DNA of 64,000 bases from assembly GCA_964016885.1 (NCBI GenBank), contig OZ024754.1, positions 4,278,001 to 4,342,000 on the forward strand. Direction: 5' to 3'. The stretch's first letter is position 1, and each line of letters opens with the position of its first letter. The DNA comes from Eledone cirrhosa. Its lineage: Eukaryota. Made by a program: the position numbers and the translations under genes. Below the pieces are notes generated by a model, which saw only the letters and a program-made list of their open reading frames with translations, did not search any database and was not told the DNA's origin. This document shows positions 1,621 to 64,000 of the stretch, piece by piece.

Positions 1621-2397
1621 GGATGGCTGTATTAGAGGTAGCGGGTGTGTGTGTGAGTGTGTGTGGTAATGAAAAGACGAGAGATTAGTCAAGCTTTAAA
1701 AGCAGGCGCGGGCGCAACAATAGATTGCAACAATGAAAAGAGGGGGGGGGGTAATAGAAAAGAAGGAAAGCTAGAAGAGGGAGGGAGGGAGAGATTGTGA
1801 GAGAGAAAGAGAGAAACAAACAAACATAGAGAGGGAGGGGTGAAGCGTCATGGTAAGGAAAGAAGAAAAGAGCGAGACAGGAGTAGTTGTGAATGAGAGG
1901 AGGAGCAGTATGAGGTGATAGTGTGAGGTGGTAGAGTGTATGAGAGAGGAATATAGAAGGGCTAAACGACTTGACGAAATACAAAACAGTATTGGAAAAT
2001 AATTGGGAGAGAGAGGGAGAGGGGAAGGTTATGCATACCTGTAAATGTGTGTGTATATATATATATAAATATATATATTGTGTGTGTGTAAATATACTTT
2101 TATGTGTGTGTATATATATCTATATGGAATAGAATGAAACGAAATTTCATTTCTCACTCTTTGTACGGCAGTTACTTAAATGTATGTATGTATGTATACA
2201 TACATACATATATATACATACAGACGTACAGTAGTATGTATATATATACATACATGCACACATATATATATGCTCGTATCGGTTTACCGAACATCTATTA
2301 TAATGCCCGGTTTGTTTGTAAATAAACAAACAGCCCGAATTACGCGCTACGGTGTTTAGGCAACCACGACACCTTTTTGTTCAACACTGTCACAGGA

Positions 2398-2440
2398 ACA
2401 ATGTACTAGTTTCAAGCTTATTAGCTATCGCCAGCATCGT
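2398..2440 (-). ncRNA. Minimal type I hammerhead ribozyme motif, A6G lesion
   Basis: Minus strand reads ACGAUG CUGGCGA U-AGCU-AAUA-AGCU-U GAAA CUAG UA^ CAUUGU. Confidence 0.65.
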
Positions 2441-2721
2441 ATACCTTCCTGCCAAAAAGTTGAAAATCTGAAAGTATATAGTTTCCTTATGCATATTAAC
2501 GACTGAGCATCCTAATTTGCATATCGAGCGAGTTTAGTCGGCCGGGCGCACCGAAAACGATAAATGGAATAGAATGAAACGAAATTTCATTTCTCGCTCT
2601 TAGTACGGCAGTTACTTAAATGTAAGTAACTCACTCGATATGCAAATTAAGCTGCTCAGCCGTTAATATGCATAAGGAAAGTATATACTTTCAGACGTTC
2701 AACCGTCTGGCAAGAAGGTAT

Positions 2722-2763
2722 ACGATCTGACGATAGCTAATAAGCTTGAAACTAGTACATCGT
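2722..2763 (+). ncRNA. Minimal type I hammerhead ribozyme motif
   Basis: ACGAU CUGACGA(2727-2733) U-AGCU-AAUA-AGCU-U GAAA(2748-2751) CUAG UA^ CAUCGU. Helix III is the palindrome ACUAGU. One G is missing from helix I relative to the other arm. Confidence 0.72.
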
Positions 2764-3045
2764 TCCTGTGTCAGTGTTGAACAAAAAGGTGACGTGTTTG
2801 CCTAAACACTGTACGGTGTAATTCGGGCTGTTTGTTTGTTTAGAAACAAACCGAGCATTATAATAGATGTTCGGTAAACCGATACGTGCATATATATGTG
2901 TGCATGTATGTTTATATATGCATACTACTGTACGTCTGTATACATGTATGTATATACTTTTATGTATATATATATATATACAGAGAGAGAGACAGAGAGA
3001 GAGAGATAGAGACAGAGAGAGAGAAAGATAGAGAGAGAGAGAGAA

Positions 3046-3214
3046 AAAAGGCTTCTACAGGACCAAAACTGATTCATTCGGGACAAATCATCAGGAAGCC
3101 CGAATGAAACAGTCCTAGTCTTGTAGAAGCCTTTTCTATATTAAATATTTATACTCTGCTGTGTATTGAGTACCCTACTTACTGTGGTTACCCCCGATTG
3201 AACCCGGGAAAAAC
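3046..3214. mobile_element. HHR element family B, partial palindrome
   Basis: Minus 3051-3099 reads GCUUC CUGAUGA UUUGUCCCGAAU GAAU CAG UUUUGGUC CUG UA GAAGC. The plus arm starts at about 3099. Homologous to 6752-7117 and 19968-20135. An inverted tail fragment lies at about 3414-3449. Confidence 0.75.
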
Positions 3215-3479
3215 TTATATATACATATATATATATTTACGTATATACATATACACATATGAATGTATATACATATATAAATGTATATAGATATACATAT
3301 ATAAATGTATATATGTATATACATTTTTATATGTATATGTATACATACATAAATGTATATACATATACATATAAAAATGTATATACATATATATAGCTAT
3401 GCATATATATAATCTGGGGTAACCACAATAGGTAGGGTACTCAATACATCCACTATATATATATAATTTTTTTAAAAAC

Positions 3480-4335: not shown

Positions 4336-4364
4336 GGCTTTTACAGGACTAGAACTGTTTCATT
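4336..4364 (-). mobile_element. Family B fragment (3' half of the HHR)
   Basis: The reverse complement reads cgaatgaaacagttctagtcctgtaaaagcc. Confidence 0.6.
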
Positions 4365-4642
4365 CGAATTAAGTACCAGTAAAGTAATTGGTTCTATATG
4401 TTATTGGTATTCTGAGGAATTATGTCAATTTTAGAAAGAATTGTTAGTTTGAAGAGCTTTATATGAGGTGTTTAAAAATGTAGATATATCATTTAAAATG
4501 CTAATGGTTTATAATTAGAAATATACGTTGATTAATCTTGCATTTAAGAGAAACAAGGGGGACTTAAGTCATATTAACATCATCTATCTATTGGTGTGTG
4601 TCCAATTGTTCGTATACATGGACGTGTACATTAATAGGTGTG

Positions 4643-6508: not shown

Positions 6509-6899
6509 TATAGATACACAATCATACATATATATATATATGCATGTATATGTATGTGTATATGTAAGCACTTTTACAAATGAGAATGAAATACATACTA
6601 ATAATATATAGTAGATTAAATTATTTTAAACATATATACAATAATGTACATACACACAAACACACGCACATATGTGTGTGTATGTATATATATATATATA
6701 CATTTATAAGTGTGTTTGTGGGTGTATGTTAATGTATGTACATGTATGTATGTGTTCCTGGGTATGGTTATGTATGTAACTGGTGTATATATATATATAT
6801 ATATATATACATAAGATAAGTTATTCCGGGTTGAATCGGAGGTAACCACAGTAAGTAAGGTACTCAATACATAGAGTATAAAAGTCTTATTATAGAAGA

Positions 6900-6948
6900 G
6901 CTTCTACATGACTAGAACTGTTTCATTCGTGAGAAATCATCAGGAAGC
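6900..6948 (-). ncRNA. Type I hammerhead ribozyme motif (family B)
   Basis: GCUUC CUGAUGA UUUC-UCAC-GAAU GAAA CAG UUCUAGUC AUG UA^ GAAGC; one helix III mismatch. Confidence 0.7.
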
Positions 6949-6995
6949 TTCCTGATGATTTCTCACGAATGAAACAGTTCTAGTCCTATAGAAGC
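6947..6995 (+). ncRNA. Type I hammerhead ribozyme motif (family B)
   Basis: GCUUC CUGAUGA UUUC-UCAC-GAAU GAAA CAG UUCUAGUC CUA UA^ GAAGC. Other copies have CUGUA, giving a 4-bp helix III and a GUA site. Confidence 0.7.
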
Positions 6996-7507
6996 TCTTC
7001 TATAATAAAACTTTTATACTCTGCTATGTATTGAATACCTTACTTACTGTGGTTATATATATATATATATATATATACACCAGTTACATACACAACCATA
7101 ACCATACCCAAGAATACAAATTACTGATCTAGCCTATTCCTCAAGATGTATTGACCAAACAAATACAATAAAATATTTACCGAATTGTTTTATCGTTTTA
7201 ATTCAAAATTAATAATAACCATGCATGTATTTCGTCTTCTTGAATTTTGTATTTTCGTATTAGGGTTTTGTTCTATTTATTCCAGCCACTGTTTTCGTTG
7301 ATATTGTTTTTCTTCTGGTTGAGGTTGGGGCCGTTGTGTGTTCTTGTTTAATTTTCAGTCTGGAAGGCTATTTGTTCTGCTACAACCTTTGTCAAGGGGT
7401 CGGCACATTTTAACCTTTGTTTTAATATTTGTCTGTAAATTTTCGGTGAAATTAAGTATTTATATATAACAGTTAGTTTCGAATGGAAAAGACGTTTATA
7501 GGCTTCA

Positions 7508-9655: not shown

Positions 9656-9834
9656 ATGAAAAATTGGATATGATTCAAGAGAATGGTTTGACTATGAAGA
9701 TGTGAATATATATATATATATATATATTAGTAAAAGGAAAAGAAAATGCTGACAAATTTTTCACTGGGAAAAATTTGTCAGCATTTTCTTTTCCTTTTAC
9801 TAATATATCACAACTCGTGTGTTACACCTCTATT

Positions 9835-12843: not shown

Positions 12844-14912
12844 TTAAACTAACATGATTATTAACTTGTTCTCACTATCAGAAAACAACGAAGGTTATAT
12901 CTACATAAGAGATATATGCTTCTAGTCATTCCTACCAACCTACATGTTATGTTTGTTTACCTTATACATGTTCAGATTTAAAATAGTTATTTTCTTGTTG
13001 TTTCGGTCATGATCAACCTTGTTTAAATAAGTCTATAATCGAAGGCTTTCTAGACTAGATCATCCCATCCCATGTATAGAAGAAGCCGATCGCCAAATCA
13101 AACCAGAGAAACCAGGAATGATAAAGCACTCAAGCGTTATCTTGACACCGTAGTAATTATTTATTCGATGACTCCTTAATGACTCTACCAATTAGCCGCC
13201 TCTTAACGAAGGTATAGAGTTTAATTGGTAAAGAAAAAATGAACTTTATATTCTTATTTCTAACAAATGATTTGGGATAGTCAGCCCAAAATTCGAAACG
13301 TAATCACCCACTCGGTTCGCCGACAATGCTACACATACACAAGAGTGGTGCTTCCGTAGAACCACTGATGATTGATTTCACTCCTAAATTATATGGCGTC
13401 TGTATAGTTTCTAATAATGTTTGAAATAACATGAAAAGAGATTGGTTAGGAAAACAGATGAGTAAAATATATATAAATGTGCTTTTGATATCTCTCACAG
13501 ACGGTCTCACAACTATATTTACGTATGTATGTATACATAACAACACACATATATATATACATACATCATACTTATATACACATTTTTTTTGTATGTACAT
13601 ATATATATGTGTGTGTGTATGTGTATATATAGACATATATATATAGAGACATACACAAATATATATATATATACATAATCACATACATGCATATCTATGT
13701 GTATGTGTGTATGCGTATGTGTAAGAGTGAGAAATGGAGAGAGAAGGACAGACAGACAGCGAGAGAGGGGGAAAGAGAAAAACAGAGAGAGAGAGAGATG
13801 AAGGCATAAAAATATATGATGAAAAAGCCATAATTAAATAGAAAAAAAAAAATTTTCTGTAAGATTTTGGCAAAATATTTCATAGTATTTTCTCTTCCTC
13901 CGGATATTTCCATACGTCTTATCTGCAGTTTAATTTATGTTCGCTTTGTTTTTACTTTCGCTAAATTTTTTTTATTTTTTTTCACTTTGATTACAGAAGT
14001 AGATTTACTGGCATATGAATAATTGAGTGTATAGATTTTTACATTTCTCAACTGTGATTTTTGCTAATGAATACCAAATCAATAAACGATTCTTGGTGCC
14101 AAGACCATTAGAATTATATATATGAAAAAGGCAAGAACAAAATATAAAACAAAATTAATATCATTCTCTTATTAATCAAAGTTCTTTTTATATTCTTTTA
14201 TTTTTTTCAACAGAGAGTATGTTTCCCAATAATTGGCAAAAGTATCTTTCTACGAATGTATGCATTTGTGTTCACCATTGGTAACCCTGTCCATGTAGAA
14301 TGCGTACGTTTATATACAGACCGAGTCAATATTTATAGAATAGCTGTTGCTGGTTGTTTGGTTTTTAGAGAACTTTTATTACAAATAAGTGCATAAAACT
14401 TCTCAGATATTTTAAAGATAGTGATGGAAGCTCAAAAACACAAATCAAATGAGACGTTCGTTGGATCGGTTAAAGGAAGTTATGCCTCATGACTGATTCT
14501 ATCAATCGAATACAGTTCCTGGCAAAAAATGTCACCATGTATACGTGAAAGGTGTCATTTGTACTAAGAATGCAGAAAATCAGGATAGATAGCGTAAATC
14601 ATCCCGGTTAACACCTTACTAAATCTTCAAACCCGGCGTCTATGGTTTTCTACTTTATTTATCAACCTGAAAGTTGGATTCAGCGAACTTTGAAACCAGG
14701 GCGTTGAGAGCTAGAAGGCATACCAAAGAGCATTCCTGCCGACGTCTAACAACATTGTTATATATATATAGATATATCTGTGTGCGTGTGTGTGTGTGTG
14801 TGTTTGTGTGTTAGTCGTCTTTGCACATATAAGCTCGCATATCTATCAAGATGTGTGTGTAAGTATCATATCACAAATCACACCCACAATACTATCTTAC
14901 ATTATCTATTGT

Positions 14913-15084
14913 GGATTGGCAGTATCGGTAGAGGGTCGGACGCCAAGCTTTCTAGCATAGTTACGTCCCTTTACAGACTGAGTTCAAATCCCACCGAGGC
15001 TAACTTTGCCTTTCATCCTTACGGGGTCGATAAAATAAAGTACCAGTAATGTACTGAGTAATTGCTGGCCCAAATGTAGAAACG
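14913..15084 (+). mobile_element. Main SINE, short variant, with TSD
   Basis: ggattggcagtatcggtag ... gagttcaaatccc (B-box-like) ... gtcgataaaataaagtaccag ... tagaaac. TSD attatctattgt(14901-14912)/attatgtattgt(15085-15096). Confidence 0.9.
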
Positions 15085-15202
15085 ATTATGTATTGTACAA
15101 TGTCACTGATCTACAAAGAGACAGAATAGTTGGTCACAAGTGCAACGCTTGTTCTCTGAGATGCACCGAAATTAGGTACTGCTTCTGCTTTTGGGTTAAA
15201 TA

Positions 15203-15352
15203 ACTGTTTCTATTTTAGGCACAAGGCCAGCAATTACCCAGTACATTACTGGTACTTTATTTTATCGACCCCGTAAGGATGAAAGGCAAAGTTAACCTCG
15301 GCGGGATTTGAATTCAGATCATAAAGGGACGTAACTCTATGCTTCAAAGCAT
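15203..15352 (-). mobile_element. Main SINE, short variant, 5'-truncated
   Basis: Reverse complement of the same consensus; forms an inverted pair with 14913-15084. Confidence 0.9.
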
Positions 15353-15367
15353 ATGTATTCAATCCAT

Positions 15368-19845: not shown

Positions 19846-19943
<98 letters not shown>

Positions 19944-19967
19944 CATGTATATATATATATATATATA

Positions 19968-20135
19968 CCGGGTTCAATCGGAGGTAACCACAGTAAGTAA
20001 GATACTCAATACATAGCAGAGTGTGAATATTTAATATAGAAAGGCTTCTACAGGACTAGAACTTTTTCATTCGGGAGAAATCATTTCTCACGAATGAAAC
20101 AGTTTTAGTCCTGTAGAAGCCTTTCTATATTAAAT
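19968..20135. mobile_element. HHR element family B, palindrome truncated within the ribozyme core
   Basis: Centre at about 20081 (gagaaatcatttctc). The right arm keeps gaatgaaacagttttagtcctgtagaagcc. TA-flanked. Confidence 0.78.
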
Positions 20136-20239
20136 ATATATATATATATATATATATATCGGACGTTGATTTTCGTTAATTCCTGAACTGAAAACGATTC
20201 TCGCTAATTTATATTTGTATATATATATATATATATATA

Positions 20240-21216: not shown

Positions 21217-21270
21217 AAAGTTAAATTCTCAAATTTGACCAATTTACTCTTAGACATACCAGTTACACAC

Positions 21271-21334
<64 letters not shown>

Positions 21335-21380
21335 CTGGTATGTCTAAGAGTAAATTGGTCAAATTTGAGAATTTAACTTT
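21217..21380. repeat. Perfect inverted repeat (about 55 bp) enclosing (GT)n
   Basis: aaagttaaattctcaaatttgaccaatttactcttagacataccagttacac and its exact reverse complement ending at 21380. Confidence 0.92.
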
Positions 21381-27587: not shown

Positions 27588-27715
27588 CTGAGTTCAAATC
27601 ACGCCGAGGTTAACTTTGACTTTCATCCTTACGGGGTCGATAAAATAAAGTACCAGTAATACACTGGATAATTGCTGGCCTTGTGCCAAAAGTAGAAACA
27701 ATTATTATTATTATT
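27588..27715 (+). mobile_element. Main SINE, short variant, inserted in the (ATT)n tail of an older SINE (about 27480-27585)
   Basis: ctgagttcaaatcacgccgagg ... tagaaacaattattatt. Confidence 0.88.
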
Positions 27716-27793
27716 ACTGTTATTATTAGCTTAAGCAACATAGCGCACTATTTATTCCTACCGCTTTGAAAATGAGATCTATTGAAAAATAAT

Positions 27794-27970
27794 TATTTCT
27801 ACTTTTGGCACAAGGCCAGCAATTAAATCAGCGCATTACTGGTACTTTATTTTATCGACCCTGTAAGGATGAAAGGCAAAGTTAACCTCGGCGTGATTTG
27901 AACTCAGAATGGCAAGGGCCGTAACTTTATGCGTCAAAGCATGGCGTCCGATACTGCCAATCCACCGCCG
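27794..27970 (-). mobile_element. Main SINE, short variant, with a 16-bp TSD
   Basis: TSD tctattgaaaaataat(27778-27793)/tctattgaaaactaat(27971-27986). Confidence 0.9.
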
Positions 27971-29200: not shown

Positions 29201-29659
29201 AAAAAATATATATATATATAAATGAAAGGTATAGAAAGTATTGTAGCAAGAAGCCAACAGTATTCCATTATATATATATATATATAGATATTTCTCTTTT
29301 GCTGTGAATACATATCCGGTACGTGTATGTGTGAGTTGTATACATGATGTTGCTTATTTTTAGCAAGTATAGACAAAGGAGTGTTTGATGTAATATGTAT
29401 ATTTCTCAAAGACGTATTCTTCATTCAATATATGTCAATGATGGAATCATCATTCCACATCCCCTCATGAATGGCGTAGATAACTTTACGAAACAAATTT
29501 TCCTTATTATTACCTCTTCCAGTATCATATCGGAAAAGAACCTGTCTGAATGTTGATATTATTTCGAAACGGATCAAAGATTTGATAATATAACTAACTT
29601 TCTCTTTATTAATCAATAATTTGAGGGTATGTAGTTATATAATTGTTTTCATTATTGGT

Positions 29660-29838
29660 ATTGGCAGTATAGGTAGAGGGTCGGATGTCATGCTTTGCAG
29701 CACAGAGTTACGGCCCTTTACGGTCTGAGTTAAAATCCTGCCGGGGGTAACTTTGCCTTTCATCCTTATGGGTTCGATAAAATAAAGTTCCAGAAATGCA
29801 CTGGGATAATTGCTGGCCTTGTGCCAATAGTAGAAACA
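29660..29838 (+). mobile_element. Main SINE, short variant, with a 9-bp TSD
   Basis: TSD attattggt at 29651-29659 and 29839-29847. Confidence 0.9.
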
Positions 29839-29868
29839 ATTATTGGTCTTTGGAACAGAATGATGACT

Positions 29869-30051
29869 TGGATTGGCAGTATCGGTAGAGGGTCCGGCGC
29901 CATGCTCTCCAGCATAGTTACGTCCCTTTACGATCTGAGTTCAAATCCCGCCGAGGTTGACTTTGCCTTTCATCCTTACGGGGGTCGATAAAATAAAGTA
30001 CCAGTAATGCACTGGGTAATTTCTGGCCTTCTGCCTAAAGTAGAAACAATT
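29869..30051 (+). mobile_element. Main SINE, short variant
   Basis: Consensus match, about 30 bp downstream of the previous copy. Confidence 0.9.
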
Positions 30052-30850
30052 AAGATGGTAGGCTTTTTTTAATTAATATGAATCTATGATGTTTTCAACA
30101 TTACTTATGACTAAATAAAAATAAAACAGTTACACACTTAGGCCTGTTGAGATTCTGGGTTTGGAATATTCCTTGAGACTATCGGGTAGATGAGAGGAAT
30201 GGATTACAAATCTCTCACTCTTAAGAATTCATGCTCATATCCTCAAGAGATTATATTCCACTGAAAACAGCTCTGGGTTAGTTGGTGCAGTTAAAACAAA
30301 CTACGGATTAATACTACGCCGGAGAATACTAACAGTCATAAACTACGTTTCAAAATAACATTCTACAAAATGTTACTCATATTGCAATGGTCAACAAGAA
30401 ACGCTGCTAGATAACAATTCTCTCAATGAGTCACACAGTAAATTGGACTCCTTTTACACGTAGTTGCAAGACGAATTATTTTTTAACCCCATAGTTATAT
30501 ATGTACATATTGTAGTAATCTATATCAGGCTGGAATTGTAATGGATTTGCAAAAATATAAAGCAACGTATCTAAATCTAATTTGAGAACACACCATTTCA
30601 CAGACAACAGAAAAAATTAACATTTACAGATAAAACTATATATATCCACGTTGAAATAATAAGAGATGGCATCGTTAAAATATTCTAAAATAAATTATCC
30701 GATTATGTCTATGCATGCATGTGTATATATATATATATATATATGAGAATATTTCCCTATGCAGTTATATATATGTGTCTCCGAATCTCTCTCTCTAAAT
30801 AACACTATGTACTAGACACCTGCGTTTATTGTTTATTTGTCCTTTTGAAG

Positions 30851-31295: not shown

Positions 31296-31836
31296 CGTGT
31301 GTGCGTGTGTGTGTGTGTGTATACGCAATAAACATATAACTAAAATCTGGTAATGAAGGTTAGAGTACAAAGTGAAGTGAAATATATTTGAAAATTATGA
31401 TTAATATGCACAAATTATAGCAATTCAAACTTTATTGTTTACAGGGTTGAGAGTGAAGTTCAAGATTGATATAAGTATATATATATATTATATATATATT
31501 ATATAATAAATATATGAGTAAAATTTGGTAATGAGGGAAGGAGTACATTGTGACGTTTCGGATTTGGAAAACACAATTATTCAGTTTTTTAAATTATTTC
31601 GAATTTTACCGATATACGTAACCTATATATTATACGTGACAGAAAATAACAAGATATTTACACACACGTGCTCTAGCTTACATGCACAAAGATACGCAGA
31701 CACCCACACATGCGTATATATATATAAAATTGTGCAATCAACTCATTCGTTGTTTCGTTCCAGTTAAAAATGATACGACAGTCTATACATATATATATAT
31801 ATATATATATATAGGCTGTCATATCATTTTTAACTA

Positions 31837-31928
<92 letters not shown>

Positions 31929-37020: not shown

Positions 37021-37206
37021 TATACAGTATATACATAACTCCCTCTTGCACCAGTGGCCAACCAATACAGGCTGGAGATAAAATGTGTAGCAACAAGGTA
37101 GGTGCCCCGGCATGGCCTCAGCCGGATGGCTGGAACAGGTAAAAGAGTAAAAGAGTATAGATATAAATGGAAAAAAATGAAATTTCATTTCTCACTCTTA
37201 GTACGG

Positions 37207-37284
<78 letters not shown>

Positions 37285-37290
<6 letters not shown>

Positions 37291-37515
37291 TATTAGAAAT
37301 GTAAGCTATCGCCGTATTTTTTGACTAAAGAAATTAAAGAAATTATTTAGCCTGATAGTGGGGTTAAGGACCCTCGGAGAAATGGAAAAAAATGAGTATT
37401 GACGTACAATCTTTTTCTATTTATCTGAGGGTTCTAAACCCCACTATCAGGCTAAATAATTTCTTTAATTTCTTTAGTCAAAATACGGCGATAGCTTACA
37501 TTTCTAATAATTTCA
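37285..37515. repeat. Fold-back element of about 230 bp (arms about 105 bp) between TA tracts
   Basis: tgaaattattagaaatgtaagctatcgccgtattt... / ...aaatacggcgatagcttacatttctaataatttca. Confidence 0.9.
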
Positions 37516-37542
37516 AACCAACTCGCTGTTTCGAAAATATTC

Positions 37543-37586
<44 letters not shown>

Positions 37587-41757: not shown

Positions 41758-42062
41758 ATTGGATGGATTTGGCCTGAAATTCAATGGGAGTTTTACATTT
41801 GGCGGGAACCCATCTCATACTCGAATCTGGACTCAGCCGATTTCTTCCAGAAAATGAGAGAGAAAGTGAGAAGATATAGAGGAATAATTGATCCCAGTAT
41901 TAGACTGGTATTGTTTTATAGACCTCGAATGGATCATAGGCAAAGTTGACGGTGAGGGGATTTGAACTTAGAGGAGACAGAAGGTTGGGAATAAATACGG
42001 CAAAGGGTTCTATCCGACGTTGTAACTACTTTAGCAATTCACCTCCGACTTTAGTAAATAAT

Positions 42063-42255
42063 TGGTTCTACTTTTGGCACAAGGCCAGCAATTATTCCAG
42101 TGTATTACTGGTGCTTTATTTTATCGACCCCGTAAGGATGAAAGGCAAAGTTAACTTCGGTGGGATTTGAACTCAGACCATAAAGGGCAGTAACTCTTTG
42201 CTGAAAAGCATGGGGTTCGACCCTCTACCGATACTGCCAATCCACCAACCCATAT
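42063..42255 (-). mobile_element. Main SINE, short variant, with a 15-bp TSD
   Basis: TSD actttagtaaataat at 42048-42062 and 42256-42270. Confidence 0.92.
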
Positions 42256-52855: not shown

Positions 52856-53044
52856 AGGGCGGTGGATTGGCAGTATCGGTAGCGGGTCGGGCGCCATGCT
52901 TTCCAGCATAGAGTTACGTCCCTTTACTATCTGAGTTCAAATCCCGCCGAGGTTGACTTTGCTTTTCATCCTTATGGGGTCGATAAAATAAAGTACCAGT
53001 AAGGTACTGGGATAATTGCTGGCCTTGTGCCAATAGTAGAAACA
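52856..53044 (+). mobile_element. Main SINE, short variant, full length, with TSD
   Basis: agggcggtggattggcagtatcgg...tagaaaca. TSD attatcatctcac(52842-52854)/attctcatctcac(53045-53057). Confidence 0.92.
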
Positions 53045-53059
53045 ATTCTCATCTCACTT

Positions 53060-54066: not shown

Positions 54067-54172
54067 ACCGTATTTCGAATTAGATACAGTCTATATAGAT
54101 ATTTAAATTAATTAAACATTTGTTTAATTAATTCAAATATCCATATAGACTGTATCCCATTCGAAATACGGT
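54067..54172. repeat. 106-bp imperfect palindrome
   Basis: accgtatttcgaat..gatacagtctatat..aattaattaaaca-tt-tgtttaattaatt..atatagactgtatc..attcgaaatacggt. Confidence 0.9.
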
Positions 54173-57938: not shown

Positions 57939-58135
57939 AGGAAAAATGTTAACCCCGACGGCAGAGCGAGCTCGATCTGTTTCGAAGGCTATTTCTGGAC
58001 GCCACAAATAGCCGTCGAAACGGCTTGAGCTCTGCCGTCGTGGTTAAACTTTTTCCTATTACCCACTCTACTACCCTAAGTATTGAGTACTCTGGTGCGT
58101 TATGGTCCATCTGGTTCCTTACCACACCTCCTTCG

Positions 58136-59333: not shown

Positions 59334-59550
59334 CAGATAGACAGATAGATAGATAAAACAGATAGATAGATAGATAGATATCTTTCTTTATTTGCCACAA
59401 GGTTGTTTCTGTCGCAGAAACGACAAAGCGGAAAGACAACGCTTCGTGGTTTCTGCGACGGAAACGCCCTTATGGCAAATAAAGAAAGATTTATCTATCT
59501 ATCTATCTATCTGATAGATAGATCGATAGATAGATAGATAGATAGATAGA
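59108..59550. repeat. (GATA)n region containing a fold-back of about 110 bp (59380-59490)
   Basis: atctttctttatttgcca.aagg..gtttc.gtcgcagaaac / gtttctgcgac.gaaac..cctt.tggcaaataaagaaagat, with mirrored GATA/TATC flanks. Confidence 0.88.
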
Positions 59551-59582: not shown

Positions 59583-59771
59583 AGGGCGGTAGATTGGCAT
59601 TATCAGTAGAGTCGGACACTATACTTTGCAGCATAGAGTTATGGCCCTTTACACTCTGAGTTCAAATCCTGCCGAGGTTAACTTTGCCTTTCATCCTTAC
59701 GGAGTCGATAAAATAAAGTACCAGTAATGTACTGGGTTATTTGCTGGCCCTGTGCCAAAAGCAGAAACAAT
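59583..59771 (+). mobile_element. Main SINE, short variant, full length, with a 12-bp TSD
   Basis: TSD tatttaattaaa (59568-59579, 59772-59783). Confidence 0.92.
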
Positions 59772-60811
59772 TATTTAATTAAAACTTTTTAAATAATTTC
59801 AGAAATAATGAAGGAGGTTTAAAGCTTTCTCTGCAACACGTGTAGCTCATGAGATGTTCCTGCCGACAAATCGTTTAGTGCCCCAGAAGGAGGACAGTTA
59901 AGACATGTTGATAACGAAATCATTTGGCAATGTTTTCCTTTGATTACTCACACAAGTTTCTATTTCACAATTCGGTATTTAACCCGCTGCATCCTCGTTT
60001 GTCCCCCAACGTCGCTTATCTTGCCAGTTAGAAAGAGAATATTGTTTATGAGGCACACAACGTTCTCTTCCTCCTCTCTCTAACTAGCATCCTCGTTTCC
60101 TCTCACTCTACATCTCCCTCAAGCACCTATCGTCACACTGATACGACGACACTTGGCAGGAGGAAGAAGATATATTCATTTGATTAGCGTGAGATATTTC
60201 CGCCTCTATCCATCTATATACATACAAACATGTATACATGTATACGACAGCTCAGTTTGTACCCAAAACCGATGACAGATTAGATCCGATAAAGCACAGT
60301 TTACACACTGCCCTTCCATCGTCATTGAAGCAAAGTTGACAGAAGCCAAGCCAAAACAAGACTATACAAGACAAGGCATGTTGTCTAATTGAGGAAACTG
60401 ACGTCTGCATGCAATTTTCGCAGTAACATTTGCAGCGACTGCCAAAAGCCTACACGCTTTCTCTCCCTGATTGGCAACGAGTATATAAATGCCAGGATAT
60501 GAAAGAGAATCTGCCTATTTTTATATTCTTCGTCTCAATGGAAAATCAGCTGCCGCACTGACCAGGTCAAGTGTGCACCTTATAATAACTCTAGCAAGCG
60601 AAATGTGTGAATGAAAGATTGATTGAGTGGTAAGCAGAAGGTGTGGGTTAGAAGGCTTGTGGGTTACGTATTTGCTTTGCATTTACGTTACATGAACGCT
60701 TCTCTCGTAAGCTTCAATGATGTGAACACAAAGTAGGATTTATTACCAGAAATATCATCTTTAACAGCTAACAAAAATATAAAAATATCCACCGGTGAAT
60801 ACATAAATATA

Positions 60812-61706: not shown

Positions 61707-61838
61707 CGCTGAGGTTAACTTTGACATTCATCCTTACGGAGTCGATAAAATAAAGTACCAGTAATGCACTGGATTCGATTTAATCGACTTTTCCCTCCCC
61801 TTAAATTGTTGGCCTGGTGCCTAAATAAGAAACCGTTA
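61707..61838 (+). mobile_element. Main SINE, long variant, 5'-truncated
   Basis: cgctgaggttaactttg...gatttaatcgacttttccctcccc...gaaaccgtt. Confidence 0.88.
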
Positions 61839-61857
61839 TATTATATTATACTATATA

Positions 61858-62042
61858 TGGATTGGCAGTATCGGTAGAGGGTCGGACGCCATGCTTTGCA
61901 GCACAGAGTTACGCCCCTCTACAGTCTGGGTTCAAATCCCGCTGAGGTTAACTTTGCCTTTCATCCTTACGGGGTCGATAAAATAAAGTACCAGTAATGC
62001 ACTGTGGTAATTGGAGGCCTTGTGCCAAAAGTAGAAACAATT
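61858..62042 (+). mobile_element. Main SINE, short variant
   Basis: tggattggcagtatcggtagaggg...tagaaacaatt. Confidence 0.92.
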
Positions 62043-62457
62043 ATATATATATAAAGATTATATAACAGGCTGAATGAGTTGGGGTGCATAATCTAACGAA
62101 ACTTTACCTGTATATGTCGCTGGTGTAACTAATTTTCATTAATTCGTCCTATGGACTGAATGTTCTTAACCTATATATACAATTATATCTGTATATTTCT
62201 AACTGTTGGTCAATTAATGATAAACATTGATTACCAGATTAATTAACTATGGAGATATAAATGATACAGAAGCGAAACCAACCCAAACCAAACAGTGAGT
62301 GTCTTTTATTATTATTTCTGGCAATATTATAACAATATGACCCTCCCCAAATATAACAATATATAGGCTTAAAAATGGAATGAGAATAAGAAGAAAGCAA
62401 GAACGGGGTGGGGGAGTTTTCCTCATCAGTTGTCTACGTTTCAACGCTTTAAAGACA

Positions 62458-62495
<38 letters not shown>

Positions 62496-62496
<1 letters not shown>

Positions 62497-62754
62497 AAGA
62501 TGAAATCGAAAATGCAACTGGAGTCTTATTTTTAAAAAAAATATATATATTTATTTGGTTCCTTTACCGGTTTCGCAGTTCTTCTGCTTTTCAAAAGTAG
62601 AGTTGAGATGGAGGGTCTGTGGTTTTTCTCACAGACCCTCCATCTCAACTCTACTTTTGAAAAGCAGAAGAACTGCGAAACCGGTAAAGGAACCAAATAA
62701 ATATATATATTTAAAAAAAAATAAGACTCCAGTTGCATTTTCGATTTCATCTTT
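62496..62754. mobile_element. Near-perfect 259-bp palindrome carrying a variant HHR in each arm (family H)
   Basis: Arms 62496-62621 and 62630-62754 with an 8-nt loop; they differ only in a T/A homopolymer run. Confidence 0.85.
62654..62689 (+). ncRNA. Minimal hammerhead motif with U3-A8 core covariation
   Basis: CUU UUGAAAA GCAG-AAGAA-CUGC GAAA CCGG UA^ AAG. Helix III is the palindrome ACCGGU. A mirror copy lies on the minus strand at about 62562-62597. Confidence 0.62.
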
Positions 62755-64000
62755 TTTTCTTTATACTTTCACTCGTGTAGGACACCTCGGTTATTTTTCA
62801 TTTTGTAAAAAAACCCCTCACTTTCTAATATATCTCTCTCTATATATATATGTGCCCAGAGATATTGAGATAGAACACCATTAACTAAGAAGGGTGATTC
62901 TGACTCGAATGAAATCGTTTGCAAACATATAGAATAAATGCGCACACCTTCGTCCGTTTATTTCGTCATAATTTTATTTGAGTTCAATTTTAGAACTTTC
63001 TTCTGGGATAGTTGTGTTCGTGTGTGACGGGCGGAAACATGTTGTACAGTTAATATAATATAGATTGTTAATATTATTATTATCATCATCATCGCCGGTT
63101 GTTCTCGCGCTGTCGTAACAGCCGGATGTGAAATGCAAAAGACATATTGTGTGTCAGGATGGCGCCCCTACGTCTCCATTAGGGGTTAAGGACCTTTTTA
63201 CATTTACCTATATATATAATTAATCTTACGTTTGCATGCAACAAAATACATGCACACACACACACACACATATGTGTGTGTGTGTATAATTAATCTTAGG
63301 CCTTATTACATACATGCATCGAAATACACACACACACACACACACACAATGTGAGTGCGCAATAGCCAGCAGACAAGAAATACACTCACACCCTGCACAC
63401 ATAGAGAGAAAGACCAACAGACACACCGACAGACAGGCAGGCATACATACATACAGACAGACACGGGTACATGCGGACAAACTGACAAACTGACAACAAG
63501 CAGAAGGACCAACAAACGTATACATACATACAGCATGTAAAAACAACAACAACAACAACAACAAAATAGACCATCATTTAGTGACATCCTTATGTTTCCC
63601 TCCCTCTACCAACCCTCCTCCTTTCGATGGTAGCAGTGAGAGGTGTGGCGATCCATGCTCGAGAGTTTATTCTCATTGTTTTCTTTTCGCTTCGTTTTAT
63701 TTGTTATTATTATTATTTTTTCTATGTTTACTATTTATATATTATTGTTTTCCGTATTTTCATCTGGCATTCATCTAATCCGCTCAGTTGTCCTTTGCCG
63801 AAGAAAGAAGGGCAAACATATGCCAAGAGGCCATACAGAGGCGGTAGTATACACTATGATTAAAGACTTTCACCTGATCTATCGCGTTTCATTGCTTACG
63901 ACGCCATTTTGTTTATATATTTTATTTATTTATTACTAGTTTTATATTCTTTTATATCATTTATTTTGTCTTTTCTTGTTCCTATGGGATGGGCGGTAGT

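Follow-up and report, generated by a model that had tools for sequence, protein, structure and literature searches.

A decayed, probably Penelope-mobilized hammerhead element of retrozyme size in Eledone cirrhosa DNA

The palindrome at positions 2124–2951 of a 64,000-nucleotide stretch of Eledone cirrhosa DNA (hereafter, the window) carries one hammerhead motif on each arm and a short repeat spaced by exactly 440 bp, raising the question of which machinery inserted it: reverse transcription of a circular retrozyme RNA, or the enzyme of a Penelope-like element (PLE). The sequence features described below suggest that this non-coding, decayed element is probably a non-autonomous unit mobilized by a Penelope enzyme and resembling a retrozyme in size and ribozyme. 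Arguments for a link between animal retrozymes and PLEs have so far drawn on ribozymes common to both, on their co-occurrence, and on trees (PMC7229834; bioRxiv 10.64898/2026.07.22.740005). A retrozyme-sized unit with a Penelope footprint, and with its tail found on two unrelated bodies, provides a concrete test of that link, and the element also bears on how the inverted arm of Penelope insertions arises. As one decayed copy with a layout that is already known, it should be useful to specialists rather than surprising.

Architecture of the element

The window consists of AT- and microsatellite-rich, animal-like non-coding DNA. The segment at 2124–2184 recurs at 2564–2624 with 59 of 61 bases identical and a spacing of exactly 440 bp (blastn E = 8e-25 within the window), reproducing the repeat claimed in the preliminary description. 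The direct part of the element (2124–2624), whose RNA sense is the minus strand, amounts to 1.14 units and is composed, in the RNA sense, of a tail, a spacer, the body with a hammerhead, a microsatellite-like stretch, and a second tail. The inner 61-nt tail (2564–2624, minus strand) forms a partial tandem resembling a pseudo-LTR (pLTR). The spacer (2535–2563, minus strand) is GC-rich, 29 nt long, and located between the inner tail and the body; it is missing from the inverted copy. The microsatellite-like stretch between the body and the outer tail (2185–2275, minus strand) is largely common to both arms in their alignment and thus belongs to the element. The outer 61-nt tail (2124–2184, minus strand) has a small predicted hairpin and is the 3′ end of the insertion. 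The unit is 440 nt long with a GC content of 37%, as determined from one copy only: no further copy of the hammerhead body is present within the 64-kb window, and a head-to-tail array with the hammerhead in at least two consecutive units was not found at this locus, which holds 1.14 units.

The inverted copy, previously estimated at about 320 bp, is borne out as a 5′-truncated, tailless copy of 324 bp (2628–2951) with approximately 91% identity, whose RNA sense is the plus strand. The right end of the element is at 2951, not at 2957 as first given. The right arm stops in a microsatellite-like stretch, just short of the position where the 61-mer would start, which makes the 61-mer a tail confined to one arm. 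The inverted arms align across 2181–2982; 234 of the 257 aligned bases are identical in the non-microsatellite core, and the longer arm contains 26 substitutions over approximately 306 aligned positions, with three gap columns.

The junction of the arms should be noted. The locus had been described as a hairpin with a loop; the inverted arms are indeed present, whereas the supposed loop is really an 85-nt skip in one arm of a palindrome centered at 2619–2622. The junction hairpin (2610–2631) has a fully paired stem of 9 bp and a loop of 4 nt; past this stem, the right arm skips approximately 85 nt of the unit and resumes at a shared microhomology, AACT.

Five differences between the arms are clustered within 12 nt (2692–2711 in the right arm and 2452–2471 in the left), all of them changes to T in the sense strand of the left arm, and they break a hairpin that the right arm has. 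An octamer-like ATGCAAAT is located close to the 5′ end of both arms (2515–2522, minus strand, and 2640–2647, plus strand), with a TATA-like box approximately 40 nt downstream of it and upstream of the ribozyme. The 8-mer has one other occurrence in the window. The octamer-like sequence and the TATA-like box are possibly an internal promoter, a candidate that we take to resemble small-nuclear-RNA promoters and newt satellite 2; a literature search for this resemblance found no support for it.

Direct repeat flanking the element

TA-rich sequences at 2092–2123 and 2952–2983 (both plus strand) flank the element. They are identical over 14 bp (up to 2965 in the right copy) and match at 26 of 32 positions overall, and the match extends through the microsatellite until the outer 61-mer starts. 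The window has two exact occurrences of the 14-mer, at 2092 and 2952; with one mismatch allowed, three matches are found in the window versus 0.40 expected. In 782 TA-rich control windows, informative runs in common with the left flank are 9 long at best, and none reaches 10. The direct repeat is likely to be a target-site duplication enclosing the outer 61-mer and both arms, and this enclosure indicates that 2124–2951 is most likely a single insertion. The duplication is longer than those of Adineta Penelope elements (up to 32 bp versus 8–10 bp; PMC3846280), and it is partly microsatellite here.

The richness of the window in palindromes and microsatellites would also be compatible with a fold-back artefact of assembly or library preparation, or with an inverted duplication at the DNA level, in which case the outer 61-mer would be a separate microsatellite insertion. 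However, the 26 positions and three gap columns at which the arms differ exceed by far what a fresh artefact would show, the tail and both arms lie together within the direct repeat, and the layout recurs at 37163, making such an origin very improbable.

Hammerhead motifs

Two hammerheads had been claimed, one with an A6G change and the other missing a G in helix I. Both are present with these lesions, and both are of type I. The left one (2398–2440, minus strand; predicted cut after 2404) has A6G in the core and, beyond the earlier description, a second change, from C to U in helix I, that leaves a G·U pair. The right one (2722–2763, plus strand; predicted cut after 2757) has an intact core, and its helix I lacks the core-proximal G. 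Helix I consists of 6 bp, helix II of 4 bp with an AAUA loop and a U·U base, and helix III of 2 bp that are palindromic. The two motifs, one per arm, read outward from the center of the palindrome. In the minimum-energy folds, the core is mispaired in both natural copies. The minus-strand hammerhead at 2398–2440 is likely to be inactive, and the 2124–2951 copy is probably dead.

A relaxed type I descriptor, which tolerates both lesions and was written with the lesions already known, detected three motifs on both strands of the window, whereas 200 local dinucleotide shuffles averaged 0.02 motifs (zero in 196 of them). Rfam gave no match at the gathering score across the window. At E values up to 10, the 75 matches in 2050–3050 include no hammerhead family, and the best ones are driven by microsatellites. 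The hallmark of plant LTR retrozymes, a type III hammerhead in both LTRs, is absent: the motifs here are of type I and lie outside the direct repeat.

The non-microsatellite part of the unit folds better than shuffled sequences (z about −3, 60 shuffles). In a circular fold, 68% of the unit is paired with a z score of −6.0, a value that is inflated by the microsatellite, and the antisense circle gives −4.5 (60 shuffles each). The size, the GC content, a type I ribozyme with a 6-bp helix I and a 4-bp helix II, and the paired circular fold are all in line with a classical non-LTR retrozyme, a sub-case of our preferred explanation in which a circular RNA was the template and was reverse-transcribed 1.14 times round. 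Circular retrozyme RNAs are on record for a mussel, a coral, and the axolotl (PMC7229834). Nevertheless, the locus has no tandem hammerheads, and the z score loses weight through the microsatellite. The 3′ end shared with the element at 37163–37547 (see below) suggests that synthesis began at a defined site, and a linear read-through RNA would account for such a site just as well. The anole element uses mainly uncut RNA as its substrate and can dispense with ribozyme cleavage (PMC11167929), and one of nine tested dimers cleaved in the preprint (bioRxiv 10.64898/2026.07.22.740005). We consider a circular template doubtful, with roughly the standing of a substantial minority reading.

A second element with the same tail

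A third fragment of the 61-mer had been noted beside a (TA)n tract. Its homology stands (84% over 50 columns), but it is not a lone fragment; it is instead the tail of an element with the same layout (37163–37547, element C). Element C consists of the homologous outer tail (37163–37207), (TA)n, an unrelated body free of hammerheads, a partial tail, and an inverted copy. The partial tail is an exact 16-nt copy of the tail 3′ end at 37380–37395, giving a period of 215 bp; this 16-mer has two matches versus 0.00 expected. The outer tails of element C and the 2124–2951 element end within 4 nt of each other, and the best mutual match between the two bodies is 10 nt. Between the arms of element C, all seven mismatches are located in the 30 nt nearest the center, and the distal part differs by a 2-nt gap only.

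The presence of two unrelated bodies between copies of the same tail raises another interpretation, namely that mobility resides in the 61-nt tail as the signal, the intervening 380 nt being captured cargo, like the host DNA captured between pLTRs with a target duplication in Adineta (PMC3846280). However, random host DNA would not be expected to carry a well-formed hammerhead oriented like the tail and surrounded by extended pairing, and capture is an improbable origin of the body.

Head-to-head palindromes of another hammerhead family

Three head-to-head palindromes in the window (about 3047–3261, 6759–7104, and 19922–20137) belong to a hammerhead family unrelated to the 2124–2951 element (family B), fragments of which are also found near 3415–3450 and 4336–4370. 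Its hammerhead is of type I with a longer helix III and a U·U at the base of helix II. The long arms share an end motif 79–82 nt past the predicted cut, whereas the short arms have three different end points, and the centers differ among the copies. Family B looks like Penelope 3′ stumps. Element C and the family B palindromes together indicate that mirror-image insertion is routine in this genome. Neither element C nor any of the three family B palindromes showed a non-microsatellite flanking duplication. An internal (TA)n in family B was also considered and was dropped, as the alignment ruled it out.

Coding content and searches beyond the locus

Neither a reverse transcriptase nor a GIY-YIG domain was detected in the 163 filtered ORFs of the window, a search that very short or frameshifted remnants could escape. 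A single ORF had a Pfam match, which is below the cut-off (E = 0.007) and was taken as noise. No recognizable ORF is present in 2124–2951, and no long one runs through the body. An autonomous PLE, with an ORF for a telomerase-like reverse transcriptase with or without GIY-YIG, was thus not found in the window, and the link to Penelope is accordingly one of architecture.

These results bear on the possibility that the locus is the 5′-truncated 3′ end of a full-length coding PLE, in which case there would be no short unit, and 440 nt would simply be the length at which this copy happened to be truncated. After 440 nt, the enzyme would have started again at the tail, copied another 61 nt, and inverted. 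PLE copies are mostly 5′-truncated and form partial tandems and inversions (PMC8557442 and PMC8969392), the junction following the inner tail is seen only once, and family B looks exactly like such stumps. The lack of a long ORF through the body speaks against this explanation, as does element C, in which the same tail is joined to an unrelated body; this is unexpected from two stumps of one element. A coding parent of this kind is rather unlikely, in our estimation.

Exact scans with a hammerhead 22-mer (metagenome and viral contigs) and a tail 25-mer (metagenome contigs) gave no match in these collections, where animal repeats are not expected. Part of the sampled words is contained in 11 of the 14 public sequencing runs listed (seven studies), none of which contains half or more; the largest share, 0.33, is reached by three runs from a single sample. 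The runs listed include no RNA run containing the sampled words, and they were not counted as evidence. A literature search with limited coverage of subscription journals yielded no description of this element family, which may already stand in Repbase or Dfam.

Comparison with Penelope-like elements and retrozymes

The published signature of PLEs comprises partial tandems, an adjacent inverted 5′-truncated copy, a one-sided tail of 30–40 bp, and a preference for microsatellites (PMC8557442). The corresponding features here are a partial tandem forming a pLTR (61 nt at 440 bp, and 16 nt at 215 bp in element C), an inverted 5′-truncated copy adjoining the 5′ end (2628–2951), and a tail at one end, on the left arm only, though of at least 61 nt versus the published 30–40 bp. 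In Adineta, the inverted pLTR is shorter than the direct one, the tail is on one arm, and palindromes of 18 and 38 bp are located at the pLTR 5′ ends (PMC3846280). The Penelope protein of the anole cuts and extends both strands of AT-rich DNA; reverse transcription of its RNA starts 111–118 nt into the ORF, the ribozyme cut being at 26, and two start sites inside the RNA bound the tail (PMC11167929). Dual minimal hammerheads on opposite strands, 100–700 bp apart, have been assigned to truncated PLEs in Schistosoma, and small palindromic helices III imply that hammerheads act as dimers (PMC4209133).

The element thus shares with Penelope insertions (Adineta Pen2a/Pen3a, PMC3846280; PMC8557442; anole Poseidon, PMC11167929) the partial tandem, the inverted 5′-truncated copy, the one-arm tail, a short palindrome at the 5′ junction, a likely target duplication, a TA-rich target, and a type I hammerhead with a small palindromic helix III. 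It differs in having no ORF, a period of 440 nt rather than kilobases, a tail of 61 nt, a duplication of up to 32 bp, and a predicted cut 280 nt from the tailed end; the last feature is also unlike family B.

Metazoan retrozymes are 150–450 bp in length with a GC content under 50%, one family has a U·U at the base of helix II, and the non-LTR ones have been proposed to be moved by PLE enzymes (PMC7229834). Animal retrozymes have further been argued to derive from pLTRs (bioRxiv 10.64898/2026.07.22.740005). The unit here resembles the non-LTR retrozymes of these two sources in being non-coding, 440 nt long, and low in GC (37%), in its near-canonical type I hammerhead (two motifs with complementary lesions), in its structured RNA (predicted here), and in the proposed dependence on Penelope-like enzymes. 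In contrast, it is dispersed, comprises 1.14 units plus an inverted copy, and has a microsatellite inside, rather than forming a head-to-tail array; both ribozymes are damaged, and it is known from DNA sequence. Membership in the non-LTR retrozymes is not established, as the locus has no tandem array, and in the terms of the preprint, the element counts as a monomer rather than an active retrozyme.

Non-autonomous Chlamys elements are also comparable. Those such as MRC1 are non-coding PLE derivatives that form pLTRs and have 3′ ends in common with autonomous families (PMC8557442); unlike the present element, they are green-algal, and most Chlamys elements have no hammerhead. The labels mini-PLE and retrozyme monomer largely coincide for the present unit. 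A bolder interpretation, which we regard as possible but clearly the less probable, is that the 440-nt unit is a true circular-RNA retrozyme, preserved in a single insertion with all the Penelope hallmarks, and the 45–61 nt tail shared with the ribozyme-free element C a portable start signal for Penelope reverse transcription. If so, the locus would provide direct structural evidence for the hypothetical Penelope mobilization of animal retrozymes, together with a short cis element.

Possible insertion mechanism

The preliminary description had proposed reverse transcription of a circular or tandem RNA with a template switch. A longer-than-unit template and a switch agree with the flanking duplication and the fold-back junction; a circle, on the other hand, is not needed for a Penelope layout (PMC8557442 and PMC3846280). 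Under the preferred reading of a Penelope-mobilized unit, a Penelope-like reverse transcriptase-endonuclease would act in trans on a short hammerhead-bearing RNA and nick a TA-rich site on both strands, the left nick serving as the primer. The template would be an RNA longer than one unit (a tandem read-through or a circle), within which reverse transcription would begin at the tail 3′ end and proceed for 500 nt before stopping at the next microsatellite. The cDNA end would then fold back through the 9-bp stem, slip about 85 nt at AACT, and copy itself for about 325 nt. A TA-rich microhomology would allow the other target end to capture the new strand, and gap filling would generate the duplication. 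In multimeric transcripts of intact source copies, processing would fall to the hammerhead, probably in dimeric form, considering that helix III has only 2 bp and is palindromic. An intact ribozyme in the middle of the unit is expected from an uncut multimer and from a ligated circle alike.

For the inverted arm, we lean slightly toward formation by fold-back, which is supported by the junction hairpin and, in element C and family B, by 5′ ends that nearly coincide between the two arms. Renewed priming on a different unit or RNA molecule is a less probable but serious candidate. The arms differ by 8.5%, while the tails and the duplication core differ at 2 of 75 positions (Fisher p = 0.09, binomial 0.04); this gap is expected from two different templates and is a weak hint against simple fold-back. 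Twin priming on a single dimeric RNA was also considered: it explains why the direct arm stops beside the end of the inverted arm, but element C and family B are without such adjacency, and it is not the favored model.

Other repeats in the window

More near-perfect palindromes with unrelated sequences are located at 9722–9808, 21217–21380, 31758–31839, 54067–54172, 57939–58057, 59359–59513, and 62490–62760. Motif scans detected no hammerhead in these seven, several of which are centered on or flanked by microsatellites. A motif search of the literature found nothing for an abundant SINE-like family of approximately 190 bp, which presumably resembles octopus SINEs. Its copies, often in inverted or tandem pairs in the window, include those at 14893–15353, 27588–27969, 29634–30052, 42055–42248, 52856–53050, 59583–59789, and 61707–62048, among others.
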